This document shows positions 1 to 48,538 of a stretch of DNA of 64,000 nt, piece after piece (position 1 is the first letter of the stretch; the number at the start of each line of letters is the position of its first letter). The translations under genes and the position numbers were made by a program. The stretch comes from Scenedesmus sp. PABB004 (Eukaryota), in assembly GCA_014905635.1 (NCBI GenBank), contig CM026547.1:2790001-2854000 (forward strand). Reading direction: 5' to 3'. The notes below the pieces were generated by a model. It had not been told where the DNA came from. It saw only the letters and a list, made by a program, of their open reading frames with translations, and ran no database searches.

Positions 1-1125
1 GGTGCGGCTGCAGGTGCTCGACCTCAGCCACAACCAGTACCGCCACCTGCCGACCATGACCGGCGACCTCACGCAGCTCCAGGCGCGACCCCGCCTGCCC
101 GCCCGCGCGCGCCGCGGCGCCGACACAGCCGCCGCCGGCGCCGACGCTGCCGCCGCCGACGCTGACGCGCCGCCGCCGCGCTGGGGCTTGTGCCGCGCCG
201 CCGCGCAGGCGCTGCTGCTGGAGGACAACCAGCTGGAGGACCTGCCCAGCAGCTGCAGCGCGCTGCTCAAGCTCACGGCGCTCACGCTGAGCAGCAACCG
301 CCTGCACGTGCTGCCGCCCGCCATCGCGCGCATGAGCGGCCTGGCCAGCCTCAGCCTCGCGGACAACCCGCTGCTCGGCCGCGACGCGGTGGTGCTGCAG
401 CTGCAGCGCCAGCTCCCCGGCCTCGCGGTGGACCACCTGCCGTCGCTGCCCGCGGGCGGCGCGCAGCTGCCGCTCGAGGCGATGCAGCAGCATCTGCTCA
501 GCGGCTGGGGCGCCGCGGCGGGCGGCGGCTCGCCCCTGCCGGCGGCGGCGCCCGCGGCGGACGGCGGCGGCGCGGTGGGCGGCGCGGCCGCCGCGCCGGG
601 CTGGCTGCTGCAGCCGGGCGCGTTGCCGCGCAGCCTGGCGCAGCTGGTGCAGCAGGCCATCGACGCGGCGCAGGAGCAGCCGCAGCACACGCGGCAGCTC
701 ATCAAGCTCGTGCTGGGCGAGCGCTTTGGGGCCGACAGCGGCAGCGACGGAGCGGCGGCGGGCCGCGAGGGTGCCGCCGCCGCGCCGGCGAGCGGCGGCG
801 CAGGCTCGAGCGCAGCCGCTGCGGCGGCCGCCGCCAGCGCGCCGCTCAACCCCGGCACGTGGCCCGGCCACCCGGCGGGCGAGCCGCTCCCCTGGCAGCG
901 CATGCTGGCGGCGCAGCCGCCCGCCAGCCACCCCATGCTGCACCTAGGGGACGCCTCGGCCGGCTCGAGCGAGGGCGGCGCCGGGCTGAGCGACGCAGCG
1001 AGCGCGGCGGCCTGCGCCGCGCAGCTGCACCTCGCGGCGTCGCTGCAGCAGGCCCAGGCGGCGGCAGCCTCGGTCTTCCAGGCCCACCAGGAGCTCCAGG
1101 CCGCCGCGGGCACGCGCTTCAGCGA

Positions 1126-1157
<32 letters not shown>

Positions 1158-1970
1158 CCGGCGACGGCGGCCGCGACAGCAGCCCGCTCGGCGACGGCGC
1201 GCCCGGCGGGCACGGTCTGCGGCACCTGCTGTCGCCCGCGCGCAGCGCGCCGGCGCCCGGGAGTGCGTCGTCGAGCAGCGGCGGAGGCGGCGGGTGCGGG
1301 CGGGTCAAGTCGTACCTTGAGGTCGCCACGTCGCCCGCCACCACGGCGCGCAGCAGCGCGGCGGGGACGAGCAGCGGCGGCGCGAGCGCGAGCGCGGCGA
1401 GCCGCGGCCTGACGCGCGCGTCGTCGCTCGACCCCGGCGGCCTCGCCGGCGCGGCCTGCTTCCAGGCGGGCGCGCTCGCGCAGCAGCGGCAGCCGGGCCT
1501 GCACCGCTGCCACAGCGCAGCGCCGCAGCTCGCGTGCGCGCTGTCCGGCGGCCTGCTCGCGCCCGTGGGCTCGTTCGGCGGCTGCAGCAGCGTGAGCGCT
1601 GCGGCCGGCGGCCGCGGCGCCGGCGCGCCCGGCAGCAGCGGCGGCGGCGGGGGGCGGCAGCAGCGGTGGCGGCGCGGGCAGCGCGGGCAGCGCGGGCGGC
1701 GCGCCCTCCGCGGCGGGCGACATGGACGACGTCTCGAGCGCCGCGGGCGTGGAGAGCTGCGGCTCGGAAGACAGCGGCTCGGACGTGCTCGTGCACCTCG
1801 CGTGCGCGGAGCAGGCGCCGGCCGACGGCCAGCGCGGGCAGCCGTCGCCGTCGGCGCAGGCGCCCGCGCCGCCTGCGCCGCCTCCGGCGCAGCCGCCGGC
1901 GCGGCAGGGCGAGCGCAGCTTCACGCAGCACATGCTGGAGGGCGCGTGGTGGGGCCGGCGGCGGGGGTGA
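1..1970 (+). CDS. Leucine-rich repeat protein (5'-partial) with long low-complexity C-terminus; apparent +1 frameshift near 1650
   Basis: LRR motifs LQVLDLSHNQY, LLLEDNQLEDLP, LTLSSNRLHVLP, LSLADNPL. Candidate GC-AG intron 83-208 joins QLQ|ALLLEDNQL. The coding-like frame switches at the G-run 1649-1654 and ends at TGA 1968-1970. Confidence 0.75.
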
Positions 1971-2248
1971 CGCGCGGGGGGCGCACTGTCATTGGCGGCG
2001 GCTGATCGCACCGCGCGCTGCGCAGATCTATCGATCGGTCACTCAATCGGGGGGGGGGGGGGGGTGTCGGGCGCACGACCAGGGTGTGCGCCAGCTGGCT
2101 GCAGCACACGGCGGTCGGCTGTTGATGCGGCGCGCGCACGTGCGGTTCACGGTAACGCCACGCCGCGCACGCTCGCTCCGGCCAGCCCCCGCTCGCTCGC
2201 TCGCTCGCTCGCTCGCAGCCCCCCCCCCCCTCCCAATCCCGTCGCGCG

Positions 2249-2982
2249 TCACTCGCCGCCCACCAGGCTCGGCGCGGCGGCGCCGCCGGCGGTGGCCTCT
2301 GGCGTCGCGATGATGATGGACGGCTGCGCGTCGGGCCCGGTCGGCGGCTTGATGTACGTCGTCGCGTCCTCGTTGTACGTCTTGGCCGCGATGCCGCCGC
2401 ACACCAGGCCCAGCACGACGAGCCCCGGCAGGAAGTACGACTCGAGCGCCTGCGCGTGTGAAAAGGTGTGGGCGTGCGGCGGAGCGCGCGCGTTGGACGA
2501 AAAAGCGCGGCGCCGGCGGCGCGCGCGCGCGCCGGCCCGCCGGCCGGCGCGCGGCGCGCCCGCCTGGGGGCCCGGCCGCGCGGTGGGCGCTGCGCCGGGG
2601 GCGCTGCGCCGGGGGCCCGGCCGGCCGGCGCGCCCCGGGGCGACCCCCCAGCAAAAGCGTGCACCTTGCCGAATGCCTCGAAGCGCTCGCCCTCCCAAAA
2701 GTCGGGCGCGTCCTCGGGGCCCCGGAACGGCGCGTTGGTCTCGACGACCTTGCTGCCGAGCGCGCGGAACTCGCGGGTCACGGCCTGCTCCGGCGCGGCG
2801 GGCGCGCTGGTCGACGCCTCGGCCCCCGGCGCGGGCGCGGGCGCGGCGGCGCTGCTGCCGGGCTGCGCCGCCTGCTGCGCCGCCTGCTGCTGCTTCCTCG
2901 CGCCCGCGGCGACGCTCCTCCGCCGCGTCGGAGCCGCGGCAGCGCGCGCGCTGCCCGCGCCGGCTCGCAGCGCGAGGGCCAT
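2249..2982 (-). CDS. Conserved-type plastid-targeted single-pass membrane protein of unknown function
   Basis: ATG 2982, Ala/Arg-rich transit-peptide-like N-terminus, PDFWEG motif. GT-AG intron 2450-2664, then a hydrophobic helix FLPGLVVLGLVCGGIAA followed by TYNEDAT. Stop at 2249. Confidence 0.7.
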
Positions 2983-3266
2983 CTGCTGCTGCCGCTGCTG
3001 CTGCTGCCGGCGTGGCGCAGGCGATCTGCTCGCGCGCGCGGCGGGACGGGCGGCGCGGCGATGGGTGTGGCCTGGAACAACTGGGGCCGCGGGCTGCTCG
3101 CTCAGGACCACCCCGCGGGGCCCGGAGCTGCTGCGCCCTGGACGGGAGACAGAGGCGAGTGGGGCGCCCCGCAGTCGCGCCCGCCTTCATAATCCCACCG
3201 CACACCGGCGCGCACGCACGGCGCCGGCGCCGCCGCCACCACACCGCGCTGCTCTCGCCGGCGCGC

Positions 3267-5282
3267 ATGGCCATGTGCGTGCGCGGCCGCGGCCGGCCGC
3301 GTCCGCTGCAAGTCGCCCCACCCAGCAGCCCCCGACCTCACCTCGCCACGCCGCCGCGCGCCGCCGCAGGCACGCGGGGGCGCGGCGCGCCGGCGCGCAG
3401 CAGCAGCCCGCCCGCGCCGCGGCGAGGTCGGGCGGCGGTCGCGGCGCCGCGCCGCGCGGGCCGCGGCCGGCCGCGCCGCGGCCGGCCGGCGTGGCAGCCC
3501 GCGCCGCGGCAGCGAGCGAGGCGAGCACGGCGCCCGCGGCGGCTGCCGACCAGCCGGGCTGGCCGAGCGAGGCGTGCCGGCGCTCGCTCTTTGGCACCGC
3601 GGCCGAGCAGGCGGCCGAGGTGGAGGCAGAGGTCAGCGGCACGCTGCCGGCCTGGCTGTGCGGCTCGCTGCTCGTCAACGGCGGCGGCGACTACAGCCGC
3701 ATGGACCACATGTTTGATGGCTACGCGCTGCTCTCAAAGGCGCGCGCGCGCGGGCTCGTGCGCCGCGCCAGCGCCGCCGGGCGGCCAGCCCCTGGGCCAG
3801 GCGGCAGCGCGCGCGTGCCGACGGCTGCCCCGCGCGCCGCAGGTGCGCGTGCGCGGCGGGCGCGCGTGGGGCAGCCAGCGGTACGTGGACACGCAGGCGT
3901 ACCGCGCCTACAAGGACCAGGGTGAGCGGGGCCCACGCCGCGGACTACAAGCGCGCGCGCCGGCGCGCGCGCGCCCGCCCGCCCGCCCGCCGGCGCCCGC
4001 ACGAGCCCGGCCGCGCCGCCGCCGCGCGCCGGCGCAGGGCGCGTGGTGTTCCGCGAGTTTGCGACGCGCGCCGAGACGGCCGGCCCGCTCGGCGCGCTGC
4101 GCGAGCTCGCGGCGCAGCTGTGGGGCCTCGCGCGCGGGTCGCCGACCTTCACCGACAACGCGAGCGTGAGCCTGCAGGCGATGGGCCCGCCGGGGCTTCT
4201 GCTGGCAATGAGCGAGACGCCGGCCGCCGCGTACCTGGTCAACCCGGTGGACCTGAGCACCGTGCGCCAGGTGCGGCGCCCGCGGCGGCCTCGGTTGCCC
4301 TCCCCCCCCCTCCTGCTGCGGCGCCGACGCGCGCGGCGTCCCCCGCGCAGGTGTCGTTCAGCGACGGCATGCCGGGCGACCTCACCACCGCGCACCCGAG
4401 CGTGCTGCGCGATGGCCGCGTCGTCAACTTCACGCGCAGCCTGCCCATGGGCGGCTTCCACATCTACACGCAGGACCCGACCACCCTCACGCGCACCCAG
4501 GCGCGCCGCGCCGCCGCGGGGGCCGCCGCCGGGGGCCGCCGCCGGGGCCCGGCCCGCTGGCGCCACGCGGCGCGCTCACGGCGCGCGCGGCGCGCTGACG
4601 GCGCGCTAACGGCGCGCGCACGCGGCGGTGCGGCGCGCGCAGGTTGGGTTTGTGCCCGACCGCCGCCCGCTGAGCCCCGCGTGGGTGCACGACTTTGCGT
4701 GCACGGAGCGCCACGCGGTGGTGCTCGAGCAGCCCCTCTACATGAGCCTGCCCTCCCTGCTGCTCGGCAGCCCCGCGTCGCACCTCTTCATGGACTGGGA
4801 CCCCCGGGACGACGTGCTGGTGCACGTGGTGCCGCTCGACGGCACCGGGGTGCGCGCGCGGGACGGTCCGGTGGGGCGCGCCCGCGCGCCGCGCCAACCG
4901 CCCGCTGACCGCGGCCCGCCGCCGCCCGCTGCCTGCCGACGGGCGGCGCGTCGCGGCGCGCAGGCGGTGCGCAGCTTTTCGTGCCCCGCGTTTTTCTTCT
5001 TCCACGTCGGCAACGCGTTTGAGACGCACGACGGCGCCGCGCTGGTGGTCGACCTGGCCGCGTACGACGACCCCCAGATCCTGCTGGACCTCGGCCTCGA
5101 CCCCCTGCGCCACCCGCGCCCCGCGCCCGGGGGCGGCCTGCAGCGCGAGGTCGCGGCGAGCGAGTACCGCCGGCTCACCATCCCCCTCACCGGCGACGCG
5201 GGCGCGCGGCTGCAGGCGCGCGCGCGCCGCGGGGCGCGGCTGGCGCGCGGCCCCTCGCCGCACGCCGCCGACGCGCGCGCGT

Positions 5283-5362
<80 letters not shown>

Positions 5363-5815
5363 GCGCGCGCGCGCGCGCAGGCGCCGGAGCCGCTGCTGCC
5401 GCGCGCGGGCGGGCAGGGCGGCGGGGGCGGCGGGTTCTGCGAGTTCCCCGCCGTGCCGGCCGCGGCGCGGGGGCGGCCCTACCGCTACGCGTACGCCCTC
5501 GGCGCGGCGCGGCCGACCAACATGGGCAACGCGCTGACCAAGCTCGACCTCGAGGCGCGCAGCGCGGCGGCGTGGCACGAGCCCGGAGCGGCGGTGGGCG
5601 AGCCCGTGTTTGTGCCACGCCCCGGCGGCGCCGCGGAGGACGACGGCGCCGTGCTCGCGCCGGGCGTCGGCCGCGACGGCCGCGCGTTCCTGGTCGTGCT
5701 CGACGCGCGCACGTGGGCCGAACTCGCGCGCGTGACGCTGCCGTTTGGGACGCCAAACCGCTTCCACGGGATCTGGCTCGACGGCGGCGGCGACGGCGGC
5801 GGCGATAGCGCGTGA
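3267..5815 (+). CDS. CCD8: Carotenoid cleavage dioxygenase (RPE65 family), CCD8-like, multi-exon
   Basis: Motifs GTLPAWLCGSLLVNG, HMFDGY, FTDNA, GEPVFVPRPG..EDDG. All four Fe-binding His are present (TTAHP, WVHDF, FFHVGNA, RFHGIW). The start codon is inferred. Confidence 0.85.
5283..5361. repeat. (GCC)n microsatellite in a CCD intron
   Basis: About 26 tandem GCC units ending shortly before the acceptor AG at 5379-5380. Confidence 0.95.
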
Positions 5816-6054
5816 GGGCACCGGTCCCATGCTGTGCGTATGTGAGGGAACAGGTGCCGCGCTGTGCTGGTTGCCTCGCGCCACCCCGACCGCGCGCGGC
5901 GCGCGCCTCGGGCCCAGACCTGAACCGCCGCCGCAGCCGCGCTGGCGTGCCCCCACCCCTGCCACGCAGCCACAGTTCCGGTCGCCGGTGGCAGGGCGTC
6001 AGCAGCAGGCCGTGGGGCAGCGGGCCCCCTGCGGCAGCACGCGCCGCACGCAGC

Positions 6055-6863
6055 ATGGCCCAGCACGGTGAAGGGGGCTCCCCCCGGCCGACGGCCGCGC
6101 CTGTGACACGCGGACCGGCCACGCCGGCGGCCCAGGTGGTGCTGGCGCCCGTGGGCCCGCCCCGGGCAGCAGCGGCAGCAGAGGCAGCAGCGGCAGAGGC
6201 TGCCCCGCGCTCGCCGCGCGTGGGCGCCAAGCGGCCCGCCGCGTGCGAGCCCGACGACGAGCTCTATCGCGCGCCCGAGCAGGAAAGTGGCGCGGCCTGC
6301 AGCGGCGGCGGCGACGGTGCAGCGGCAGCAGCAGCGGCGGCGCCCGACGCGGCCCCGCCGCCGGCACCGGTGGCGGGCGGCCGCGCCGGCCCCGCCGCGC
6401 CCTGCACGCCCGTCAAGGCGCCCGAGCAGGCGGGGCCCCGGGGCGAGCAGGCGGGGGCCCGCAGCAGCCGCAAGCGGCGGCGCCGCACGCCCGCACGCGC
6501 GGCCTTGAGCAGCAGCCAGCTGTTCACGCCGGTCCTGCTCGACCTGCGCCTGGAGCTGATGAGCCAGGACAGCGATCACGAGGACGGCGGCGAAGCCGCT
6601 GCCGCGCTGCAGCAGCAGACGCAGCACGCGCAGCAGACGCAGCACGCGCAGCACGCGCAGCAGGCGCAGCAGGCGCAGCAGGCGCAGCAGGCGCAGGCAG
6701 TGCTGGAGCTGGCGCGGGAGGCGCCACCGGAGCTGGCGCAGCCACCGCCGGAGCTGGCGTGGCAGGGGCCAGAGCTGGAGGAGGCCCGCGCGCTGCAGCA
6801 GCGGGTGCAGCCAGCGCCGCCGCCGCCGCAGCCGCAGCAGCAGCAGCAGCAGCAGCAGCAGCT

Positions 6864-6905
<42 letters not shown>

Positions 6906-9900
6906 GGTGTCGGCGAGCCAGGCAGGCACGAGCCGCGCGACGCACGAGACGCCCGGCGGCGCGCCCAGCAGGGCCCATGTTGCGCCGCCGGCGGCGCAGG
7001 CCGGGTGCGCGCCCACCCCCGCCCCCGCCCCCGGCCCCGCCCCCGCCCCCGGCGCCGGCGGCGGGGGCGGCGGCGCCGTGGTGTATGTGCACGACTCGGT
7101 GCCCTACCTGCGGCGCCGCCTGCCGCTCGCGGCCGCGCGCCTGGGGCCGTACGGCGCGCACGTGCGCGGCGGCGCCGCGCCGGGCAGCGCCGCGGGCCTC
7201 GCGGGCGTGAGCCACCTCGTGGTGCACCCGGGCGGCGGCGGCGGCGTGGAGCGGCTGCTGCAGCTCGCGGAGGCGGTGCGGGCGGAGCAGCAGCGGTCGG
7301 GCGCGCCGGCGCTGGTGGTGGTGACGGACGCGTGGCTCGACGCGTCGCTGGCGGCGGCGGCGCTCGTGCCGCCGGCGCCGCTCGACGTGCTCCTGCCGCG
7401 CGCGCCGCCGCCGCCGCCGCCGCCGCGCGCCGCGCCCAAGTTTGGCCGGGGCCCGGCGCGGCACGCGCGGATGGGCAGGTTTGCCGAGTGGCTCGGCTTC
7501 TGGCGGCAGGAGCTGGATGATGTGAGTTCGCAAACGGAGCTGATGCTGCACGCCAACTTTGACCCCGCGCGCGCACACCCCGCCAACGAGACGGTGCGGC
7601 GGGGGCTCAAGGAGCTCGAGGCGTTTGAGCGCGCCATCGCGGTGCGCGGCGGGCGAGCCGAGAAGGGCTGGGACCACCTCGTCGTGCCCGGAGGTGAGGG
7701 CGGGGGCCGAGAAAGGCTTGCGCACGGCGCAGCGTGCGGGGCGCCGCGGTGCCGCGCCGGGGAGCGGGGGCGCTGCTCCACGCGCGCGCCGCGCCGCGCC
7801 GCCCGCCTGCCGCGCCAGCGCCGCCGCCCGTGGCACACGAGGCGCTCGTCTACGCCCATGCCGCCGCGTCGCTGCGGGCCTGCTCCTTCCCGCTGAGCGC
7901 TGCGCTCGGCGTGGACCGTATCAAGAGCCTGTTGCCGTGGTGCGGCGGCAACTTCATCCCGCTCCTGGTGCACGAGATGCTCGTTGGCGGTGGGCCGCGC
8001 CACCGCCGCCGCGCCGCCGCCGCCGCACCGCCGCTGCCGCGGCTGAGACCGCTCCGCGCGCTGCGCAGGCACGTGCGAGCAGCTGGAGGGCTACCGGTCC
8101 AACAAGGCTGTGTGCAACTCGCTGGGCCTGGAGCGCCCCGCCACGCGCGGCGGCGCCGTGCGCGCCGCGTTCTGCCGCCTGCCTGGCGTGGGCCCGTCCC
8201 TCGCGGAGCGCTGGTGGCAGGCGGGCCTCACGACCTACGACGAGGTGCGGGCGTGAGCGGCGTGAGCGGCGCGGGGGTTGCGCAGCCCCTTGAACCGCTC
8301 ACGCCCGCACCGCGCGCCGCGCGCCGCGCGCCGCAGGTGCTCGCGGCGGCGGCGCCGCCCGCCGGCGCCGGCGGCACGGCCGCGGGCGCCGGCGGGGCGC
8401 CGGGCGGGGTGAGGCTGAGCGCGGCGGTGCGGTGCAGCCTCGCCCACGCCGCCGACCTGCTGGAGGGGGCCAGCGCGGACGAGGCGGCGGAGATGGCCGC
8501 CTGCGTGCGCGCCGCGCTCGCCGCCGTGAGCGGCGTGGGCGACGGCTGGCGCATCGAGCCGGTCGGCGGCCGCCGCCGCGGCGCGGCGCGGCACGACGCC
8601 GACTTCCTGGTCGGGCACGAAGCGGCGCCGGCGCTCATGCACCGCCTGGTGCCGCGCGTATACGCGCACCTGGTCGCAGGTGGGCGCGCCGGCCGGCGGC
8701 GCGCCGCGCGGCGGCGCGGGCCGGCGCCGCGCTCAGCGCTCGGCGAGCGCAGCGCGCCCTGCGCGCCCGCCGCGCGCCGCGCGCCTGAGGCCGCGCCGCC
8801 GCGCCGCCGCGGGCCGGCAGCGGGGCGGCTCGTGCGCCAGGGCGTGGGGCTGTGCCACCTCGTGTCGGGGCGGCTGCAGGGCTACGAGCTTGGGCGGCGG
8901 CGGGAGCTGGTCGGGTCGACCTACTCGCGCAACCGCCCCTACATGGACTGCTTTGACCACATCTATGTGCGCCGCCGGCCGCGCCGCCGGCCGCGCCGCG
9001 GCGGGGCTGGCCGCGCCGCGGCGACGCCGGCCGCCGCCGCCGCGCCCGCGCAGGGCATCTACATCACGCGCGCGGGGCGGCGCCGCCGCATCGACCTGGT
9101 CTTTGTGCCGCCGACGGGGAGCAGCTGGCCCATGGCGCTGATGGGTGGTCAGGGTCAAGCCACTACCTCAGGTGCGTCGCAGCCGCGCCGCCGCCGCTTT
9201 GCCGTGAAGCCCGCCCGCCGCCCCGCCGGTCAGCGCTCCACGCCCGCCCGCCGCCCGCTGCCCTCCGTCCTCTGTCGGCCAGGTTCATGCGCGACCACGC
9301 GGTCAAGTGCGGCATGCACCTCAACAACCACCTGCTCCTGCGCGTGGTGCCCCTCGCGCGGCGCAGCGGCGGCGACGGCGACGGCGGCGCCGCCGCCGCG
9401 CCGCCCGGCGGCGGCGCGGACGGCGGCGGCGCGCTGGCGGGCGGCGGCGACGAGGGCGGCGGCGACAAGGACGGCGGCGGCGGCGACGAGGCCGGCAGCA
9501 GCGAGGAGGAGGAGGCCGAGCCCGCGCTGGTGCCCGAGCCCGAGCTCGGGCCGGTGCCTGCGGACGCGGGCGGCGCCGCCGTGCACGCGGCGCGCGTGGC
9601 TCTGGTCGTGGGCGGCGTCCCCAGCGCGTCGCAGGTCGCCGCGTACGTCGACGGCGCCGAGGCGTCGGGCTGCAGCCACGTCGCGCTGTCTGTGCCCGAG
9701 GAGGCGCCGCCGACCGACCGGCGCGGCGCCGAGGCGTGGCCGCCGGGCTGGGGCCCCGCGCCGCCGGGCGCGGGCGGCGTCGTGGCCGCGCTGCGGGGCA
9801 GGGTCGCTGCGGGCGCGGGCGCGGGGCGGCGCATCGTGCTCGAGCGCGACCTGTGGGACCTGCTGGGCATCCCGTACCGCGAGCCGCGCGAGCGCGAGAG

Positions 9901-9988
9901 GCGGGGCGTCGCGTGGGCCGAGTTGTCGGGTTGCAACCCCGCGCCCGCAGCCACGCCCGCACACACACGAGCCGAGCTGAAAGGTTGA
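6055..9988 (+). CDS. X-family DNA polymerase with BRCT domain, Pol mu/TdT-like; 1-nt frameshift at ~9144
   Basis: BRCT-like segment (SHLVV..VVTDAWLDASL), 8-kDa domain (HPANE..YAHAAASLR), HhH LPGVGPSLAERWWQAGLTTYDEV, catalytic GGRRRG..HDADFL (Asp 8595, 8601) and RRIDLV (Asp 9093), C-terminal ERDLWDLLGIPYREPRER. Introns start at 7694, 7990, 8245, 8680, 8967 and 9172. Confidence 0.9.
6835..6903. repeat. (CAG)n tract encoding polyQ in the PolX N-terminus
   Basis: Tandem CAG with one CTG interruption, in frame. Confidence 0.9.
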
Positions 9989-10821
9989 CTGGTGATACAC
10001 ACGCGGCCGCGCACGAGCGCGGCACGAGTGCAGGCGGCAAGTCCCTGCCCAGGCGCCACGACAGACGCGCCGCCGCCCGCGCGTGCCTCCCCTTTCGGGC
10101 GTCAAGAGTTTGGGGGATCACATCACATTTCCACGACATTTTCACGCCGCTGTCCGCGCCGGCCGGCTGGCGCCACCGCGCCACAGCAAGCAGAGCAGCG
10201 TTTGACACACAGCAGCCTCCTGCCCAAACACCCAACGCATCTTTAGCAGCGCCAAAAGGAATCGCACCACAGCCCCTGTGCTGCGCTTGGCGGCGGCTGC
10301 GCAAACGCCGCGCGCCGGCGCCCTGCCCGCCGTCGCGGGGAGCAATGCACGGCGCAGCAAGCGGGCGCGCGCTCGAGCTCCGAGCCCAAACTCCCCCCTG
10401 CGTGGACGTGCGGCCTGTGGCCGCCAGCAACGATCAGATGCCGACACGGCGCGCGCGCCGCCGAGCCCAGCGGGCCTTGGCTGTTGTCGGTGGCGCGCCG
10501 GGCGCGAGAGCGCCGCGTCGCTAGGGCTAGGGGGCGCCGCAGCGGCTCCCCGCAAAAGATATGCGGCTAGGCCGAAGCATGCATGCGCGTCGCCCAGAGC
10601 GCCACCCACCACAGGGCCTGTGGGGGTTATTCCGTCCCCCCACCTCCCCCCAGCAAACGGGCAGCGCCGGTGGCAGTCAACACCTACCATCGCCGCGCAC
10701 ACAGGCCAGGAGGCCGCGCAGCGCGGCGCGGCCGCCCAACCAATGTTCAGGCCGCCGTCGGCGCGCAGCCGTGCGGCGAACAATCCGCGGGGCCGCCGCA
10801 GACTGTGCAATCAATCCCCCC

Positions 10822-11321
10822 CTACAGCCCAGGGCCGGCGGCCATGGCGGACGACGATGAAACGTGCACCATCTGCATCAGGCCGTTCAGCTGCTCCAGC
10901 GACGCCGCGCCGTCCGGCGCGCCGCCGGCCGCGGGATGGTCGGGCGCGCCGCAGAGCCAGGGCGCGCCGTCCTGGCCGCGGTGGCCGGTGGCGCTGGCGC
11001 TGCGCTGCGGCTGCTTGCTCAGGATGGAGGCCGACCACTGGATCGTGCCGCCGCTGCCGCTGGCGGTGCGCGCCACGGGCGGCGCCGGGCTCGGCGCGAG
11101 GCGCGTGGGGCTGAGCAAGCTGCCGCGCGCGTACGCGCCGCTGCCGCCGCCGCCGCCGCCAGATATCGTCGCCGTGAGCGGGCCCGCTTCGGGCGGTGTG
11201 AAGGAGCTGCTGCTGCCGTACGAGCCCGGCGTGGCTGCGTCCAGCTGGGCCGACGCCCACAGCGCCTGCCCGTGCGGCGCCGACGTCGGGAGCGGCTGCG
11301 ACGCGAGCAGGCTGCTGTGCC

Positions 11322-11353
<32 letters not shown>

Positions 11354-13122
11354 GCCGGCTGCGCGACGTGCGCCGCCGCCTGCGCCGCCTGCAGCTGCTG
11401 CAGCTGCTGCAGCTGCTGCAGCTGCAGCTGCTGCACCGCCGCCTGCTGCACGAGGCCCTGCATGCCCGCCGTGCCGGCGCCGCCGCCGCCCGCGCCCGCC
11501 GCGAGCGCCTGCTGCTGCAGCATGCTGTGCAGCTGCTGCTGCATGTAGAGCTGCTCCATCGCCGCCTGCTGCATCGCCGCCTGCTCGAGCTGCAGCTGCT
11601 GCAGCAGCTGCTGCTGGTACGGCGCGCCGCCGTCGCCGCCGAGCAGGCTGTACCCAGCGGGCGCCGAGCCCGCGAGCTTGCCGCCGCCGAGGCTGCCGCT
11701 GAGCTGGTGCGCGAGCGGCGGGGCGTTGCCCGGCAGCGTGCTGGCGAGCATGCCGGCGTCGAGGCCGTAGCTGCTCGCCGCCGCGGCCAGGGCGGCCGCC
11801 TGGTCCAGCGACACGCCCATGCCCGAGCCGGCGCGCAGCAGGCCGCTGCCGCGGCCGTGCGGCAGCGGCACGGGGCTCGTGGCCGACATCTGCCGCCCCA
11901 CGGCGCCCAGGCTGCTCAGCAGCGAGGGGTCGCTGTTGCTGTTCAGCCACGCGCCGCTGCCCAGCGCGCCGCTGCCCAGCGCGCCGCCCTCGTGCAGCAG
12001 GCTGCCGCCGGCGGCGGCGGCGCCGCCGCCGTGCTGCAGCAGGCCGCCGTCGTCGCCCGCGCCGCCGAGCAGCATGAGCTGCGCCGGGCTGGCGCCGCCG
12101 AGCAGCAGGCCCGAGCCGTTCATGCCCGCCGCGGCCGCCGCGGCCGCGGCGGCCATGGCGCTGCCCTGGGCCTGCAGGTAGCCGAGGCCGGCGCCGCTGC
12201 CGGCGTGCGCGAGCCCCCCGTGCGCGCGCGGCGGCGGCGGGGGCGGCGGCGGCGGCGGCGGCGGCGGCGGGGGTGGCACGTCGTGCGGCTCGGGCGTGGG
12301 CGTCGCGGTGGCATAGACGTAGTCGTCCGGCCCCGCCGCCTCGAGGCCGTTGGCCAGGCGCCTGACCTCCTCGTCCTTATGCGCAAAGAAGCAGATCGGG
12401 CGGTCGCAGTTGGGGCCCTGGTTGCAGAGCGACGTCTTGAAGCGGTCGGGGTGCAGCCAGAACTCGACTGCGGCGGCGCGGCGGCGGCGACGGCCGCGCC
12501 GGCGTGGGCGCGCGAGCGCGCGCGCGCGCGCGCCGAGGCCGAGGCGCGGCGGGGCGCGCTGCCCGGGCGCGGCGCCGCGCGCGCACGCGCGCGCGCGCTC
12601 ACAAGGGTTGTGCGCGAACGTGCACTGCTCGCGGCGCGGGCACGAGGCCGCGGTCTTGGCGGGGCAGAGCACCGCGGTGTAGCCGCGCGGGTGGCGGCGG
12701 CGCGCGACCTCGCCGGGGTGGGCGTAGGGGCAGATCTTCCAGTCGTGCCGGTCCTTGCGGCTGCACATCTCGATCTTGAACTTGAACATCAGGAACTCGT
12801 CAGACATCTTGAACACGCGCCCCGGCCGCGACCCCGGCTCGCCCGCGGGCGCCGCCGCGGCGCTGCTGCCGCCGTGCAGGCTCGCGCCGCCGCCGCTGCC
12901 GGAGGAGTAGAGGCTGCCGCCGTGCGCGCTGCCGCCGCCGTGCGCGCCGCCGCCGGCAGAGTAGAGGCTGCCGCCGTGCGCGCTGCCGCCGCCGTGCGCG
13001 CTGCTGCCGCCGTGCGCGCTGCCGCCGTGCGCGCTGCCGCCGCCGTGCGCGCTGCCGCCGCCGGCGGCGCAGCCCGGCGCCTGCTGCTGCGCCCCGGCCG
13101 TGGCTGCGCCTCCGCCGTCCAT
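10822..13122 (-). CDS. Plant-type tandem CCCH zinc-finger (RR-TZF) RNA-binding protein
   Basis: SDEFLMFKFKIEMC..HDWKICPYAHPGEVARRR arginine-rich region followed by two CCCH fingers (C..C..CTFAH; C..C..CFFAH). GT-AG intron 12468-12602. Q/G-rich C-terminus. Confidence 0.9.
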
Positions 13123-13599
13123 GGCGCCCTGGGGCGGGCGGCTTGGGCGCTGCTGCTCAGCTGCTACTGCTGCTGCTCAGCACATCGGCTGCCCCGAGCG
13201 CTCGCTGGCGGCGGGGGCGTCCGACCGACACCTGCGGCGCGGCGTGGGCAAGAGTGAGCCAGGGCGATGCGAGCCGGCGGCCCGGGCGGCCGCGGCGCGC
13301 GGCCGCGGGCGCGGCGGGCGGGGAATGGCGTCGCCCCGCCCGTTCCACGGCGCCGCCGGCCGCGCCGCGCGCTCCGCGATCGCGTTCGCCCCCGGCGAAC
13401 GTGCCCAGGCCAGGACGGGCCGCGGTTGAACGGTTTTCCCCCCGGCCCACGTGGTGCGGCGGGACGCTGCCACATGGCCGCCCCGCAGCAGCGCCGCACG
13501 CGCCCCCGGCGCCCGGGCCGCCACTCCCGGCCCGCTGCCGGCGCGGCGAGGGCCGCGGCGCCCCGCGCCGGCCATAGGAGGGCCCGCCCCCCGCGCGGG

Positions 13600-19245: not shown

Positions 19246-20893
19246 ATGGCCTGGCGGCGGTGCAGCGGTGGCGCTGCGCCATGCAGCTCGCTGCGGCCGC
19301 CCCCGTCCTGCCAGGCGGCCGCGCGGGCGCGGGCGCGAGCTGCTGGTGTGCCGCGCGCCCACAACAGCAACGGTGCGCGGCCCAGGGCGCCCGGGCGGCG
19401 CGCACACGTGCTCCAGGCCGGCCGGACAGGCCGCCGGGCGCGCTGCGCGGCACGGCGCCGCGCGGCGCCCGCGCACGCCGGCGCTCGCCGCCGCTGCTGT
19501 GCGCGCGCAGGCGGCAAGGCGCTCGACGTGGTCGGCCTGTCCAACCTGTGCGTGGACGTGGTGATCAACGTGCCGGAGCTGCCGCCGGACGACCCCGCGG
19601 CGCGCGCGGCGCTGCTGTCGCAGCTCGCGGCGGCGCCGCCGGACGAGGGCGCGTGGGAGCTCGGCGGCAACTGCAACTTCATGATCGCCGCCGCACGCCT
19701 GGGCATGCGCGTCGGCAGCATCGGCCACGCCGGCGACGACGCGCCGGGGCGGTACATGGACCGCGTGCTCGCCGCGGAGCGCATCGCCGCGATCACGCGC
19801 GTCACGCCGCCGCCCGCCGCGGCCGCCGCGGCCGCCGCCGCGGCCGACGCGACGCTGCTCTGCTTCGTCCTGGTCGACCCCGCGGGGCGGCACGCCTTCT
19901 GCTCGCGCTACGACTTTGGGCCCTGGCCGCTGCTCGCCGGCGTGCGCAGCCTGCCGCCGTCGGTCGAGCAGGTGCTGCGCTCCACGTCGGCGGTCTTCAC
20001 CAACGGCTTTGTCTTTGACGAGCTGCCGCTGGACCTGGTCAAGGCGGCCATCGCCACCGCGAGCGAGGCGGGCGCGGCGGTGCTCTTCGACCCGGGTGCG
20101 GCGCCGGGCGCGCGGCGGGCAGGGAGCGAGGGACGGCGCGGCCGCGCTGGCGCGCTGGCGCGGCGCGATGACGCGGCGCATGCGCGCGGGCCCGCCCGGG
20201 CGCACAGGGCCGCGCGCGTTCACGATGCGGAGCGGCAGCCGGCGCGCCGCGCTGGACGCGCTGATGGACCTGTCTGACGTCATCCTCATGACCCAGGCGC
20301 GGCGGCGAGGGAGGGAAGGGAGGGGAGGGAACGCCCCGCGCCCCCGGCGCACAAAACCCCCGCCGCGCGGCGCCGCCCGACCCCGCCGCGCCCGCCCGCG
20401 CGCGCCGCAGGAGGAGGCGGTGGAGGTGACGGGCCTGGCTGACCCGCAGGCCGCGGCGGAGGCGGTGCTCGCGCGGCCCGGCGCGCGCACCGAGTGGTGC
20501 GTGGTGAAGCTGGGCGGCGAGGGCGCGCTGCTCGTCACAAAGTCGCCCGAGCAGCAGGTCTTCCGCGCCGGCGCGTTCAAGGTGACCGTGGCGGACACGG
20601 TGGGCTGCGGCGACAGCTTTGCCGCGGCGATCGTGCTGGGCTACACGCGCAGCCACGACGTGCACGCGACGCTGCTGCTCGCCAACGCGGTCGGCGCGGC
20701 GACCGCGATGGGCCGCGGCGCGGGCACCAACGTTGCCGACGCGCCCACGGTGCTGTCGCTGCTCGCGGCCGCGCGCGGCGCGGCGGCCGGCGCGGCGGAG
20801 CGGGCTGACGTGGACAACGCGCTGGCCATCCTGCAGGGCTCGCTGGGCGCGGCCGACGTGGGCGGCAAGCAGGCCGCCGCGCGCGCGGCGTGA
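19246..20893 (+). CDS. pfkB/ribokinase-family kinase, plastid-targeted (resembles the plant plastid nucleoside kinase type)
   Basis: DVVGLSNLCVD, WELGGNCNFMIAAARLG, LFDPG, VVKLGGEG and the anion-hole motif DTVGCGDSF. Transit-peptide-like exon 1; three introns. Confidence 0.9.
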
Positions 20894-21109: not shown

Positions 21110-22701
21110 TCAGGGGAGGCGTGGGAAGCGGGTGAAGTCGGGGCGCCGCTGCTCGAGGTACGCGGCGCGGCCCTCGTTGCCCTCCTCGCTCTGATAGAAC
21201 AGCAGCGTCGCGTCGCCGCCGAGCTGCTGGATGCCCGCCTGCCCGTCCTCCGCCGCGTTGAGCGCCGACTTGAGCAGCCGCAGCGCGGTCGGGCTGTTGC
21301 GCACGACCTCGCGGCACCACGCGAGCGTCTCCGCCTCGAGCTCTGCCAGCGGCACGACCTGCGGCGCGGGCGCGCGCCCGCCCGGGCGTGGGCGCGCGCG
21401 GCTGCTGGAGGGCCGCGCGGCGGCTGCTTGCGGCTGCGCAGCGCGGGTCAGAGGGTCAGAGGGTCAGAGGGTCAGAGGGTCAGAGGGTCAGAGGGTCAGA
21501 GGGTCAGAGGGTCAGAGGCAGCGGCGCACCTTGTTGACGAGTCCCATGTCTGCCGCTGCCTGTGCGTCGTAGAGGCGCGCGAGGAACCACATCTCCCGCG
21601 CCTTCTTCTGGCCCACGAGGCGCGCCATGTGGGTGGAGCCGTAGCCCGCGTCAAAGCTGCCGACCTTGGGGCCGGTCTGGCCAAACACCGCGTTGTCGGC
21701 GGCGATCTAGGGGGGAGGCAGTGAGGAGGGACGGTGCAGTGAGGCAGGCGGGCGAGCGGTGGGCCGCGGTCAGAGAGGAGCCAGGCTCGCAGCCAGCACC
21801 CCCCCCCCGGCCGACCGCCGCGCTGACCGTGATGTCGCAGACCATGTGCAGCACATGGCCGCCGCCGACCGCGTAGCCCGCGACCATCGCGATGACGGGC
21901 TTGGGCAGCCGCCGGATCTGCATCTGCGCGCGCACGCGCCGGGCGGCTCAGCGGCGCGCCGCTGGCCGCCGCGCCGCCGTGCCGCCCCGCCGCCGCCGCT
22001 CTGCGCCGCGCCGCACCTGCAGGTCCAGGACGTTGAGCCGCGGCACGCTGTCCTCGCCCACGTACCCGCCCTTGCCGCGCACGGACTGGTCGCCGCCGCT
22101 GCAGAACGCGAGCGGGCCCTCGCCCGTCAGGATGACCACGCCGACCTTGGGGTCGTCCCGGGCGTCGGTGAAGCACCGCGACATCTCCGTCACTGCGCGC
22201 GCGCGGGCGCCCCGGCAGGCCGCGTCGGCGCGGCGGCGCGGCGCAGCCAGGCGCGAGCCGCAAGCTGGCTGCTGCGGCCAGCCCCGAGCCGCCGCCGCCC
22301 CCGCCGCGCGCACCCGTGCGGGGCGTGAACGCGTTACGCTTCTCTGGCCGGTTGATGGTGATCTGGGCGCGGCGGCGGGGGCCGTCGGCGGCGCGCGGCG
22401 GCCGGCGCGGCGCGGCAGCAGCGGCGCCGCGCACCTTTGCGAAGCCTTCGTCCGATTTCTCGTACTTGACCTCGCTCAGCTCCTCGCGACCCAGAGAGGG
22501 CACCCTCCGCCACGCGGTGGGCGCGCGGGAGACCTCGCCGTGCACGCGCGCGTAGCTGGAGGGCGCGCCAGTGGCGCTCGCGAAGCTCGGCCCCGGCGCG
22601 CCGCCCCCGGCGCAGGGCGCGCGCCGCAAGGCGGTCGGGGCGCTGCTCGTGCTGGCCAGCTGGCCCTCCAGCACGCGCAGGCGGCGCGCAGCCTCGTCCA
22701 T
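21110..22701 (-). CDS. MENB: 1,4-dihydroxy-2-naphthoyl-CoA synthase (phylloquinone pathway), with PTS2
   Basis: [57 protein letters not shown] and C-terminal [12 protein letters not shown]. The N-terminal RLRVLEGQL fits PTS2 (RLx5QL). Confidence 0.95.
21445..21516. repeat. (GGGTCAGA)9 minisatellite in the last MENB intron
   Basis: Nine perfect 8-nt units inside intron 21359-21529. Confidence 0.95.
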
Positions 22702-23073: not shown

Positions 23074-27038
<3,965 letters not shown>

Positions 27039-27817: not shown

Positions 27818-30323
<2,506 letters not shown>

Positions 30324-30801
30324 GGCGCGTCACCGCTCGGGCGCGTCCCGGCCCCACAGCCACGCCGCGCGCCGCGCCGCGCCGCGCCGCTGCTGCCGCC
30401 GTTGTCGCCGCTGCTGTCGCCGCTGCTGCCGCCTCTCGCCAGCCGTGCGTGCGCGTGAACCTCAGGAGGGCGTGATGTGGGAGCGGCGGAGGGGTCGCGC
30501 CGGGAATCTTGACCTTTCGGTGTTATGTTCGTTGCGCGGGCTCAGCGCGCGCTGGCCGCGTCCGTGACCACCTGGCCCGCGGCCAGTGGCTGGCCCATCA
30601 CGTACCACGGTCACGCGCGGCACCGCAGCGCGTGCGGGCCCGCGGCAGCCTCGGCGCGGCTCTCGCAAACTGCTGCGCCGCCGGCGGTCTCGCCGCGCAG
30701 TCGGATCCGGCGGCCCTGCGGACGGTGCCTGACCAGTCGCAGAAGCAGCATCTCTAGGCGGGGGTGATGAACTGCGCGTCCGGCTAGGCGGCGGCGGAGC
30801 G

Positions 30802-35739: not shown

Positions 35740-37087
35740 ATGGGGAAGCTTGGGAGCAGCAGCCTGGCGGCTGCCGTGAAGCGCAAGACGCACAAGGAGC
35801 GCTCGCAGCCGTGAGTGCCGGCCAGCCAGCGCCCGCAGGCGGGGCGCCCGGCCGCTTGCGGTGTCGCTGGCGAGGCTCGCCAGGCTCGCCAGGCCATGGC
35901 GCTGCTCGGCAGGGCTGCGCGCGGCGCGGCAGCCGCGCTTGGCCGCGCCGCCGGACGCCGCTGCTCTCGCTGCTGCTCTCGCCGCAGGGCGGCCCGCAAG
36001 AAGTATGGCCTGCTCGAGAAGAAGAAGGACTACCTGCTGCGCGCCAAGGACTACCACAGGAAGGAGAAGACCATCAAGGCACGCCGCGCGGCGCGCGCGC
36101 CTGCGGCGCAGGCAGTGCGGCGGCGACGGCCGCCGAGCGCCGCCCGCGCCGCGCCGTGCGCAGGCGCTGCAAGGCAAGGCGGAGCAGCGCAACCCGGACG
36201 AGTTTTACTTCGCCATGGAGAAGGCCCGCACCAAGGACGGCGTGCACATCGCGCGGTGCGCGCGCTTGCGGCGCCGCCGCCCGGCGGCAGCCCAGCTGCC
36301 GCCAGCAGCCCTGCCGCCGCGCGCGGCCGACTGCCCGCCGCGCCGCCGCCGTCGCTGCCGTGGTCGCCGCAGCTCGACGCAGGCCAACAAGTACACCCAG
36401 GCGGAGCTGCTGCTGATGAAGACGCAGGACGTCAAGTACGTGGGCCTCAAGAGCCGCACCGAGGCCGCGGTGCGAGCGCACGCTCGGCAGCAGCGCGGCG
36501 AGGCCGCCGGGGCGGAGGCGCGCGCGCGGCGCGGCCCGCGCTGACGCCCGCGCGCCGCGCAGAAAGCGGAGCGGCTGCGGGCGAGCCTGCACTTCATCGG
36601 CGCGGCGGCGCCGGCGCGGCACACCGTGTTTGTCGACAGCGCGGCCGAGGCGGCCGCGTTTGAGCCGGCGGAGTTCTTCGACACCCCCGCGGAGCTGCTG
36701 GGCCGCACGTACAACCGCCCCCGCAACGCGCAGCTGGCGCAGCAGCCGCTCGCGCCGGTCAGCGTGCGCGAGGCGACCAAGGCGGAGCGGTGCGGCGCGC
36801 CGCGCGCCGCGCGGCGGCGGCGCACCTCCTCTGCCCGCGCGTGCGGCGTCCGGGCAAGCGCGCGGCGTCCGAGCCCGCCGCGCCCGCCGCGGCGCGCGCG
36901 CAGGCGCAAGCACGCGGCGTACAAGGAGCTGTCGCAGCGGCTGGAGCGCAGCGCCAAGCTGGGCGGCGTGGCGGCGAGCATGGCGGCAGCCAAGGAGCTG
37001 ATGGGCAAGGGCCGCAAGCGCAAGCTCGCCGCGGCCGACGGCAGCGGGCAGGCGGTGTTCCGGTGGAAGCGTGAGCGCAAGAAGTGA
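35740..37087 (+). CDS. UTP11: U3 snoRNA-associated protein 11
   Basis: HKERSQP, GLLEKKKDYLLRAKDY, RNPDEFYFAM, LMKTQD, EFFDTPAELLGRTYNRP and C-terminal FRWKRERKK*. Confidence 0.95.
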
Positions 37088-37147
37088 GCGCGCGCGAGCG
37101 CGGGCGAGCAGCTGGTTAACCCAAACCCTCCGAGCGACGCGCGCGGG

Positions 37148-39357
<2,210 letters not shown>

Positions 39358-39668
39358 GGCGCTCGCGTGATCGGTCGCGCCTGCTGCGGGCGGCCCTGCG
39401 CTGCCCGAGAGTGGCGTCCGCTGCCGATGCCGCCGCTGCCGCTGCTGCCGCTGCCGCCGCCGCTGCCGCCAGCCAGGTGCGGCTGCGCCGGCGATCGGCG
39501 CGAGCTGACAGGCGCGTACGCAAGGCGCGACGTAGCCCTGCCGGGCGCAGGTGCAGCGCGCGGGGCTCAACGGCCGTTGACACAACGCACGACTCCGACT
39601 CGCTCCGCTCTCGCTCCTCGCTCCCTCTCTGCCCCCCCCCCTCCGCCCCTTCGCTCAAGGCCGCTCCG

Positions 39669-41182
39669 TCAGGCTGGCCGCTCCGTCAGGCAGGCCTCGC
39701 ACGCCAGCGTCAGCTGGCTATTGACGAGCGTGCACACCTTGCACGCCCACCCACTCGAGACGCCGCCGCCGCCGCCCGGCCGACGCTGCTGCAGCTGTCG
39801 GTGGCGCGCGCACCACGCGCGGAGGCCGGCGGAGCTGGGCGCCCAGCCAGTCGCCGCGGCGGCGTCAAAGCCCACGCCCGCCGCGCAGCGGGGGCAGTCG
39901 CCGCCCGACTCCGCGCCGCTGACGCCGTCGCCGCGGTCGTCGTCATCGCTGCTGGAGAGCGTGAGGTCGATGGCCTCGCTGGGGCCGCCACGCCGCCGCT
40001 TGGCGGCGCGCTGCTGGCGCATCTGCGCCTGCTGCTGCTGCAGGTGCTGCTGCCAGCCCTCGCGCAGCGCCGCCTCCTGCTGCGCCGCGTGCGCGCCGAC
40101 CGCCGCCGCAGCCGCCGCCGGCGCCGCGGCCACGGGCTGGGCCGCTGCCGGCTGCTCGCGCCCGCCGCCCGCGGCCGCGCCTGCGACGGCCTGCCGCGAG
40201 CTGCCGCCGCCGCCGACGCCGCCGCCGCCCTCGTCGCCGCTGCTGCTGGCGCGCGCGCCGCCCACGCCCGCCGCGCTGCCGCCGCCCAGCCCCAGCTCCT
40301 CCTCCACCTGCTCCTGGCTGTGCTCCGCGGGGCACCACAGGTTGTCCCGCGCGCGCCGCTCCGCCGCCGCCGCGGCCGCCGCCGCGGGCGTGAGCTGCTG
40401 CAGGTCGCGCCGCCCGCCCAGCTTGCGGGGCCCGCCAGACATCATCACCCCCGCCTTGCCCGCGCGCGCCTCGGCCGCCTGCGGGCGCGCGCGGCGCCGC
40501 CGCCGCCGGGGCGTCGCACGCGGCAGGCGCCGCGCGCAGCGCCGCCGCGCCGCGGCGCGGGCCGCGCCTTGCGGATGGCGTCGCCCATCTTGTCGGGCGG
40601 CGGGTTGTGCAGCGGGATGAAGGCGTGCGCGCCGAGGCGGCCCACGGAGGGCGCGTCGAAGCCCTCGCCCGTGCCCGTGATGCCCTTGTCCATCAGCTCC
40701 TCCGCCTCGACCCACAGCTCGTCGAGCAGCTGCCGCGCCGCGGCAGCGGGTGGGCGCGCGTGGGCGCGCGCGCGGCCTGCCGCCGCCGCGGCCGCGGCCG
40801 CGCCCGCGCCGGCGCGCCCCCGCCGCGGCGCGGGGCGCACCTTGTAGAAGGCGGCGTTGTGGGCGCTGACCTCGTTGTGCGCGAGCTCGTGCAGCATCGT
40901 GCCGAGGATGGTGTTCCAGTCATAGAAGCTGCCCGGGCTGCGCGCGGGGCGCAGCCGCACGCGCACCTCGATGCCGCGGTTGACGTTGAGCCCCAGCAGC
41001 CCCGGGTTGCGGGGCAGGAACTCGGACAGCAGCACCACGCGCCAGCGGCGGCGCCGCATGATCGGCTGCACCTGCTTCGCGACGCGCTCGAGCAGCGCCC
41101 GCGCCTCGCCCGCGCGCTCGCGGCCCTCGAGCACGGCGATCTCCCGCACCGCGAACTCGTCGGGGAACGGCGCCAGCGGCAT
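39669..41182 (-). CDS. WSS1: WLM-domain metalloprotease WSS1-like (DNA-protein crosslink repair) with RanBP2-type zinc finger
   Basis: VQPIMRRRRWRV..LSEFLP..LLGLNVN, HELAH (HExxH), SHP-like GGPRKLGG, SIM-like IDLTLSSSDDDD and C-terminal WACKVCTLVN..CEAC. Confidence 0.92.
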
Positions 41183-48282: not shown

Positions 48283-48538
48283 GGTGGCTGCCCTCGTGAG
48301 GTCCCCCGCCCCTCTGCGCCCGCCCGCGACGGCTCACGCCCCGCGAGGGCTGCCGCGACTGCTCCCGCGGGCGTGGGCGCGCATGCTGCCCGCGATCGCG
48401 CTCGCGCACACACACATCACGCCAGGGGTGCGGGCTGGAGCGCCGAGCGATGGGCGGGCGAGCGGCAGCCGGCGGCGGCGAGCGCAGGGCGCGGCGCAGG
48501 GGCGCGGCGCAGGGCGCTGCGCGTCACGCCGCGAGGGC

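Follow-up and report, generated by a model that had tools for sequence, protein, structure and literature searches.

A probable family-X DNA polymerase gene of the green-algal lineage, with a Pol mu-type active site, in Scenedesmus sp. PABB004

Does a green alga carry a family-X (PolX) DNA polymerase whose active site is of the Pol mu type? To our knowledge, textbooks and plant papers credit the green lineage with Pol lambda only. The question is raised by a locus in Scenedesmus sp. PABB004, where we analyzed a 64,000-nucleotide stretch of contig CM026547.1 (GenBank assembly GCA_014905635.1, positions 2,790,001 to 2,854,000 of the forward strand). We call this whole stretch the window, and all coordinates below are window positions. 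An earlier note, made from the letters of this DNA, had proposed a polymerase with Pol mu and TdT signatures at 7530-9900. We find that the locus is probably a nuclear chlorophyte gene for a BRCT-bearing family-X polymerase that belongs to a green-algal lineage and has a Pol mu-type active site.

Three-frame translation over 5000-10100 recovers every motif string quoted in that note, in the order stated for a family-X polymerase. We derived an exon model from frame changes bounded by GT...AG, and this model gives a PolX gene of seven exons on the + strand, 6055-9988 (Table 1), which ends in a TGA stop codon at 9986-9988. The putative start, at 6055, was chosen as the first in-frame ATG. The predicted product is a family-X DNA polymerase of about 1,100 residues in which an N-terminal BRCT-like domain is followed by a linker, an 8-kDa domain, fingers, palm, and thumb. 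The region first proposed does lie in this gene, but it starts inside exon 1 and so misses about 1.5 kb of coding sequence with the BRCT-like domain and the WLGxW motif. All six introns are GT-AG, run from 79 to 141 nt, begin with GTG(A/C/G)(G/C), and end with (C/G)CAG; their G+C content is 82-95%, versus 69-76% in the conserved exons 2, 3, 5, and 6. Exons 4-6 are read in a single frame, which stays open through introns 4 and 5, each of a length divisible by three. Open frames are uninformative in this DNA: the 64 kb hold 346 stop-free open reading frames (ORFs) of at least 120 residues, about 101,000 residues over all six frames, and these carry no information because the whole window is about 80% G+C.

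To find the family to which the gene belongs, we searched 1.84 billion representative proteins with the open frame-1 read-through 8337-9146. The search returned 38 proteins with E<=1e-3, six of them at or below 1e-10. Named members come from Trebouxia (three species), Coccomyxa viridis, Apatococcus lobatus, Elliptochloris bilobata, Tetraselmis striata, and Scenedesmus sp. NREL 46B-D3, and one entry is a transcriptome ORF. A compact GG..R..HDxD motif is present in 32 of the 38 relatives and is interrupted by an insertion in four more, while the other two are fragments without the motif. Gly-Trp is found at the gate in each of the 27 family proteins long enough to include it; the SD2 motif reads NSH in 19 proteins, TSH in four, and SSH in three, and a WPPGW-like motif occurs in 21. 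The N-terminal half of the family alignment contains a BRCT-like block, a WLGxW.PE linker, an 8-kDa domain with LP(F/W)xG and (T/G)G(T/S)C, and LPGVG fingers. The palm follows with GW...VGG..R...HD(A/V/G)D(F/Y/W), RR.D(L/I/V), and GW(T/S/V)GS..(Y/F/W)LRF, and it holds a long Loop1 terminating in (M/L)D(R/H/C)(F/Y)D(H/K)(I/L)(Y/F/W)G. In the thumb, L(N/T/S)SH is followed by VP.E.PP......WPPGW and by an end of the form (L/I)LG.P(Y/W)R.P..R(N/D); the WPPGW insertion is specific to the green-algal family. In four relatives (P0003, P0018, P0028, and P0034), a 20-60-residue insertion lies between GG.RR and HHDxD, inside the catalytic loop, and this could represent unspliced introns in the gene predictions or a real variant.

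A profile hidden Markov model (HMM) was built from 29 family proteins with the window left out. Against it, the spliced protein, which we built as the earlier note had suggested, scores 436.2 bits over profile positions 10-436 when the reading frame is restored at a one-base break in exon 6. The match is colinear, and GWSGS and all that lies downstream of it appear only in the frame-restored reading. A family HMM also aligns residues 311-886 of the predicted protein in one stretch, BRCT-like block included. Among 673 six-frame ORFs of at least 30 residues, four match the family HMM, and all four lie at 5809-9985 on the + strand, colinear with the profile. Exon 3 by itself scores 78.7 bits against profile positions 266-327. 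Because the protein reaches 436 bits with a window-free HMM and the family matches are confined to the PolX locus, the predicted PolX motif set is far beyond chance. In Pfam and the PDB, single exons give weak signals since they are short and compositionally biased. Pfam finds HHH_8 (E 0.033), DNA_pol_lambd_f (1.9e-4), and DNA_pol_B_thumb (1.3e-5; 25.4 bits with a cut-off of 25), in that order, and no PolX domain other than the thumb ORF was found by Pfam among the 346 ORFs of at least 120 residues in the window. A word-indexed homolog search with exon 4 gave no match, and one with residues 470-573 of the relative P0042 gave three algal proteins only.

We inferred a tree with IQ-TREE from the family rows and the window, rooted on two bacterial PolX sequences. 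The window is sister to a Scenedesmus sp. NREL 46B-D3 protein, P0045 (support 98/96), with 50% identity over 388 columns, and the pair falls within a five-row clade (97/98) whose members have Gly/Ser/acidic thumb insertions in common. The Trebouxiophyceae group together with moderate support (85/89). From these groupings the gene looks like a case of vertical inheritance within Chlorophyta.

What does the active site look like? The catalytic motif GGRRRGAARHDADFL places His at 8592-8594 and Asp at 8595-8597 and 8601-8603, and the third catalytic Asp, in RRIDLV, is at 9093-9095, so the Asp triad is intact. Through the family profile, RHDADF of the window aligns with GHDVDF of human Pol mu, that is, with H329, D330, and D332. 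The Loop1 segment LCHLVSG...MDCFDHIY/GIY spans exon 5 into exon 6. The earlier note had called this loop long, and the distance from the second catalytic Asp to the third bears that out: 88 residues separate them in the window, and in 14 of 16 relatives the distance is 85-101, the exceptions being P0030 (46) and P0043 (123). By catalytic residue numbers, the corresponding spacing is 86 and 89 in Pol mu and TdT and 61 and 64 in Pol lambda and Pol beta. Against these reference spacings, the predicted Loop1 of the window matches Pol mu/TdT in length, not lambda/beta. P0030, a full-length protein, lacks Loop1 but retains GWTGS; either its gene model is mispredicted or it is a form that naturally has no Loop1.

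The sugar gate of Pol mu is the Gly-Trp pair G433-W434. Its counterpart in the window, GWSGS, can be read only with one base added at 9143-9146, in agreement with the statement in the earlier note that ALMGWSGS requires a frameshift repair. SD2 is N-N-H in the window, and LNSHGL of Pol mu aligns with the family SD2 in the family profile. The first helix-hairpin-helix, LPWCGGNFIPLL (7932-7967; LLPWCGGNFIPLLVHEMLVGGTC), contains no Lys, an absence that the earlier note had also recognized; some relatives, Trebouxia P0017 among them, carry a Lys close to position K72 of Pol beta in an alignment made by eye. The Pol mu/TdT-type motif set described in the note is real, and it is conserved across the green-algal family.

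We next compared the family with polymerases of solved structure. Against the PDB, the family profile gives a best E-value of 2.5e-52, with human Pol mu at 181.6 bits (catalytic-core constructs 173.9) in one stretch through Loop1, Pol lambda at 152.5 bits (cores ~141.5, in two stretches), TdT at ~112-114 bits, and Pol beta at ~98-104 bits. The profile alignment pairs the family segments sHDaDF, ldrfdkiygif, llGWvGs, and lnsHgl with GHDVDF, MDAFERSFCIF, LLGWTGS, and LNSHGL of Pol mu. As single queries, P0017 scores 100.6 bits with mu, 63.5 with lambda, and 62.1 with TdT; P0045, the sister of the window, scores 50.8 with mu and 32.8 with lambda; and P0050 scores 57.5 with mu, 43.7 with TdT, and 37.6 with lambda. 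Pol mu is therefore the best solved match in four of five sequence searches (the profile and three of the four single members), and Pol lambda is the best in the fifth.

For structural comparisons, we used an AlphaFold model of P0017 with a predicted local distance difference test (pLDDT) value of 86.8 and a predicted template modelling score (pTM) of 0.83. The best 50 VIA-align entries for this model are TdT (Z 30.1-31.9, 27-28% identity) or Pol mu (Z 30.0-31.5, 31-32% identity) only. Structure prediction, which had been suggested as a means to place Loop1, puts a helix at 271-281 (block pLDDT 87-88), followed by a disordered tip at 284-290, and the WPPGW segment is modelled with high confidence. 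Neither the Loop1 helix nor the WPPGW segment has a counterpart in Pol mu. By language-model features, the nearest named ESM Atlas clusters are fungal PolX (Basidiomycota/Ascomycota; the 'Pol mu-like' fungal group of PMC12362244), with a score of 0.96, and this is a lead only.

Taken feature by feature, Pol mu (human/mouse; PDB 4YCX, 4LZD, 7COB, 2IHM) resembles the family in having a BRCT domain and a PolX core with G-x-x-R-R-G...H-D-x-D-F, an LLGW(T/S)GS gate, L-N-(S/N)-H, and a Loop1 of similar length ending in M-D-x-F-(D/E), and it resembles the window in having a first helix-hairpin-helix without the lyase lysine. Unlike Pol mu, the algal family has a thumb insertion of at least 25 residues with WPPGW, a WLGxW linker motif, a Loop1 that differs in sequence and has a predicted helix, and a lambda-like tail (PYREPxER), and in the window copy there are also a Gly/acidic insertion of ~110 residues and ~30 further residues at the C-terminus. 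TdT (mouse; PDB 1JMS, 4I27) has the same motif classes and a long Loop1, and it gives the highest VIA-align Z (31.9, with a root-mean-square deviation of 2.5 over 326 residues and 28% identity for the P0017 model), but the profile scores it at ~114 versus 182 bits for Pol mu, and its SD2, DNH, differs from the algal NSH/NNH. Pol lambda (human; land-plant PolX cluster) shares the BRCT domain and PolX core, the tail LLG(L/I)PYREP(A/R)ER, and a long loop before the last helix. Pol lambda differs in having Gly-Asp, not His-Asp, a Tyr-Phe gate, a short Loop1, and the lyase lysine. Judged on its motifs, the green-algal family is a mosaic in which the active-site determinants are mu-type and the C-terminal tail and the loop preceding it are lambda-like.

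Several observations weigh against a functional, mu-type polymerase at this locus, and they concern both the integrity of the gene and the affinities of its product. As assembled, everything after the palm, thumb included, is out of frame. An ATG at 9141-9143 is followed by two bases only and then by TGG (Trp) at 9146-9148, within a GGG run at 9143-9145; the frame after the break is TGG-TCA-GGG-TCA, and ALMG/WSGS requires one more base in the GGG run. We considered whether a tiny intron or another donor site, at 9145/9146, could rescue the frame, and rejected this because TGG-TCA-GGG comes immediately after. With the family HMM, the protein as assembled reaches 323.9 bits and its match ends at profile position 355, so that the sequence downstream of the break contributes 112 bits. 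Identity to the relatives is 38-59% after the break in 15 of 16 rows (at least 85 aligned columns) and 30-46% before it. Conservation therefore continues past the break, and any real frameshift must be very recent. Because the sequence after the break is as conserved as that before it, we favor, with fair confidence, an assembly error rather than a null allele; the break also sits in a G run within 80% G+C DNA, a typical site for a miscalled base. It is possible, though we think it the less likely case, that the one-base deletion is genuine, that the locus is a real and recently inactivated allele (an incipient pseudogene), and that the strain has no working polymerase. The gate motif itself holds the frame break, the window branch is 0.96, twice the 0.43 of its sister, the stop position conserved in the family is missing, and some nearly invariant positions are substituted, with Ser in the window where relatives carry Lys/Arg after GWxGS. 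Relaxed constraint would explain the long branch, the Ser substitution, and the lost stop as well as GC bias does. Furthermore, in six other genes of the window, every frame change inside a Pfam domain spans a gap of 76-133 nt, which is intron-like, with no zero-gap shift, and the assembly is therefore not visibly full of indels.

As to affinities, exon 1 of the window gives no BRCT match in Pfam; among 11 relatives, two match BRCT and two match BRCT_2 (PF00533/PF16589), and the family BRCT block aligns weakly with that of Pol mu (8.6 bits). Neither the palm exons of the window nor the read-through 8337-9146 match anything in the PDB (phmmer) or Pfam, and it is the family profile that supports the assignment. 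Within the clade of the window, P0046 gives 68.8 bits with lambda, 56.9 with mu, and 49.2 with TdT, the lambda match lying in the fingers and N-terminal palm. Foldseek does not separate the candidates: the E-values of mu, lambda, TdT, and beta are intermixed within one order of magnitude, and the identities are nearly equal (mu 23-25%, lambda 22-23%, TdT 21-22%, beta 19-20%). With phmmer, the sole PDB family matched by exon 7 is Pol lambda, weakly and through the LLGxPYREPxER tail LLGIPYREPRER, apart from one low-complexity match to an antibody construct. Finally, the stretch from SD2 to the last helix forms a long loop, as it does in lambda-type enzymes. The proposal of a mu/TdT-like enzyme in the earlier note is thus upheld in part, by the motifs, by the rank of Pol mu in the sequence searches, and by the best 50 VIA-align entries, and it is qualified by P0046, by Foldseek, and by the tail.

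These affinities bear on how the family should be placed. If it were the chlorophyte ortholog of land-plant 'Pol lambda', there would be one Viridiplantae PolX, with mu-like motifs that are ancestral or convergent, acting as a lambda-like gap filler in base excision repair and non-homologous end joining. The matching tail and the ranking of P0046 agree with this, as does the long loop from SD2 to the C-terminal helix, which is where lambda and plant PolX have Loop3 according to PMC12362244. The same paper gives a plant consensus gate, AWTGN, that also has Trp in second place, and the older view in PMC4444747 is that plants, including Chlamydomonas, have Pol lambda only. Nevertheless, we consider such orthology improbable. 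The land-plant cluster as described in PMC12362244 has gate AWTGN, SD2 DDT, Lys at the Pol beta R258 position, a short Loop1, and Loop3, whereas the window reads GWSGS (frame restored), NNH, and RIDLV (Val) and its Loop1 is long; of these published plant features, only the long loop before the last helix, which resembles Loop3, is seen in the window. The top rank of Pol mu in four of the five PDB searches and the restriction of the best 50 VIA-align entries to TdT and Pol mu argue in the same direction, and so do the Pol mu/TdT-like sequences of Chlamydomonas, which PMC10787897 presents as additional to Pol lambda (see also PMC6728418). More improbable still is that the enzyme serves specifically as a template-independent terminal transferase, a counterpart of TdT in function, and not as a mu-like templated end-joining polymerase. 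His-Asp, Gly-Trp, x-N-H, and a long Loop1 are common to TdT and Pol mu, TdT chains have the longest aligned length as well as the highest Z with the P0017 model among the best 50 VIA-align entries, and Loop1 is partly ordered in that model. However, every sequence search gives TdT a score well below that of Pol mu, Loop1 shows no sequence relationship to the TdT loop apart from its D-x-F/Y-D/E end, and no algal biology is known to call for untemplated diversification.

Our preferred reading thus remains that of a green-algal PolX with a Pol mu-type active site, and by analogy it suggests how the enzyme might work. The BRCT-like domain would recruit it to Ku and ligase IV-XRCC4 at double-strand breaks, and the 8-kDa domain would bind the downstream 5′ phosphate; with no lysine for lyase chemistry, it would be expected to have no 5′-deoxyribose phosphate (dRP) lyase activity. 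Loop1 may stand in for the missing template, and gaps might be filled across poorly paired or discontinuous templates. His beside the catalytic Asp and the Gly-Trp gate could permit synthesis from poorly paired primers and ribonucleotide use, with the Gly-Trp gate giving weak discrimination against ribonucleotides, and a few untemplated nucleotides might be added. Any template-independent or ribonucleotide activity is purely inferred from these analogies. A more far-reaching possibility, which we regard as doubtful, is that the chlorophyte family is the true sister of animal Pol mu/TdT and the fungal mu-like PolX. A mu-type end-joining polymerase would then predate the plant-opisthokont split and have been lost later in land plants, and the Loop1 helix and WPPGW insertion would give the algal enzymes distinctive properties, for example, untemplated or ribonucleotide addition at breaks. 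If this were true, it could explain junction insertions in algal transformation and could offer a useful alternative to TdT.

How new is such a gene in the green lineage? The novelty that the earlier note had seen there is weakened by existing records. Pol mu- and TdT-like sequences in Chlamydomonas reinhardtii are mentioned in PMC10787897 and PMC6728418, which cite Morales-Ruiz et al. 2018, and according to the former they exist "in addition to Pol lambda." NCBI already lists the Trebouxia family member P0040 under the name 'DNA-directed DNA RNA polymerase mu'. These public green-algal records express the same idea, chlorophytes with a mu-like PolX, although the Chlamydomonas sequences may not be of the same family. 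Literature searches found no biochemical or phylogenetic study of the green-algal family, and no alga is named in the text of PMC12362244 or its text supplement, whose companion supplements may list algal sequences. We conclude that the gene is an additional member of an already recorded, uncharacterised green-algal family and that its novelty is modest. It adds to a PolX family that is widespread in chlorophytes and has an active site of the Pol mu type, and as such it bears on the dating of the origin of the Pol mu/TdT branch, on how algae join DNA ends and integrate transgenes, on the outcomes of their CRISPR repair, and on the search for new template-independent or ribonucleotide-tolerant polymerases.

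Table 1. Positions of the PolX exons, their features, and neighboring genes in the window (neighbors called by Pfam on stop-free ORFs)
Feature	Position	Strand	Content or basis
Exon 1	6055-7693	+	Low-complexity N-terminus, poly-Gln/CAG repeats, BRCT-like domain, linker motif
BRCT-like domain (exon 1)	~7078-7397	+	Alignment to family HMM
Conserved linker motif FAEWLGFW (WLGxW; exon 1)	7480-7503	+	
Exon 2	7819-7989	+	8-kDa domain, first helix-hairpin-helix LLPWCGGNFIPLL 7932-7967; Pfam HHH_8, family alignment
Exon 3	8069-8244	+	8-kDa domain end, fingers helix-hairpin-helix LPGVGPSLAERWW; Pfam DNA_pol_lambd_f
Exon 4	8337-8679	+	Fingers/palm with GGRRRGAARHDADFL
Exon 5	8821-8966	+	Long Loop1 GRLVRQGVGLCHLVSGRLQGYELGRRRELVGSTYSRNRPYMDCFDHIY; Asp spacing, family alignment
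Exon 6	9054-9171	+	Palm strand, RRIDLV, frame break 9143-9146, then GWSGSSHYL in +1 frame
Exon 7	9283-9988	+	Thumb; SD2, Gly/Asp/Glu-rich insertion, WPPGW, tail, C-terminal extension
SD2 LNNH, within HLNNHLL (exon 7)	9320-9331	+	
Clade-specific Gly/Asp/Glu-rich insertion (exon 7)	~9350-9680	+	
WPPGW (exon 7)	9737-9751	+	Within SVPEEAPPTDRRGAEAWPPGW
Tail LLGIPYREPRER (exon 7)	9860-9895	+	
Leucine-rich repeat (LRR) ORF	2-2002		Pfam
RPE65-type carotenoid oxygenase	2462-5812	+	Pfam; directly upstream of PolX
Plant-type CCCH zinc finger (AtC3H23-like)	10825-13176	-	Pfam
PfkB kinase	19685-20890	+	Pfam
Enoyl-CoA hydratase fragment	21951-22475	-	Pfam
NAD-dependent epimerase	23486-25235	-	Pfam
GDP-mannose 4,6-dehydratase	24319-27035	+	Pfam
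Galactokinase-like GHMP kinase	27821-30541	-	Pfam
Utp11	35780-37084	+	Pfam
TauE-type exporter	37119-39654	-	Pfam
WLM protease	40448-41428	-	Pfam
SKIP/SNW	42035-44037	+	Pfam
Protein kinase	45736-48333	-	Pfam
DUF4455/DUF4456 protein	48542-53907	-	Pfam
CutC	56024-57641	-	Pfam
SEP-UBX protein	59321-60520	+	Pfam
Ribosomal protein S16	61196-61960	-	Pfam
NUBPL-type ParA ATPase	62422-63999	-	Pfam

Among the neighbors in Table 1, the plant-type CCCH zinc finger fits a green-lineage host. Within the PolX gene, exon 1 contains long CAG/CAGCAG-type repeats at 6600-6900, upstream of the BRCT-like domain, which translate into QQTQHAQ-like units and poly-Gln, and poly-Gln is also present in the N-terminus of the Scenedesmus relative P0045. 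The thumb carries Gly/Asp/Glu/Ala-rich insertions at 9350-9680, from SD2 to VP.E.PP...WPPGW, and at 9752-9830, from WPPGW to the last helix. Such insertions are found only in the Scenedesmus-type clade (P0044, P0045, and P0047, with shorter ones in P0046), and they are partly conserved at the protein level (...AAYVDGAEASGCSHVALSVPEEAPP versus ...AVEYAGAAAASGSIRVVLSVPDEAPP). At 9896-9988, the frame continues for about 30 residues beyond the position at which nearly all relatives stop, that is, directly after ...ERN(C/A)(P).

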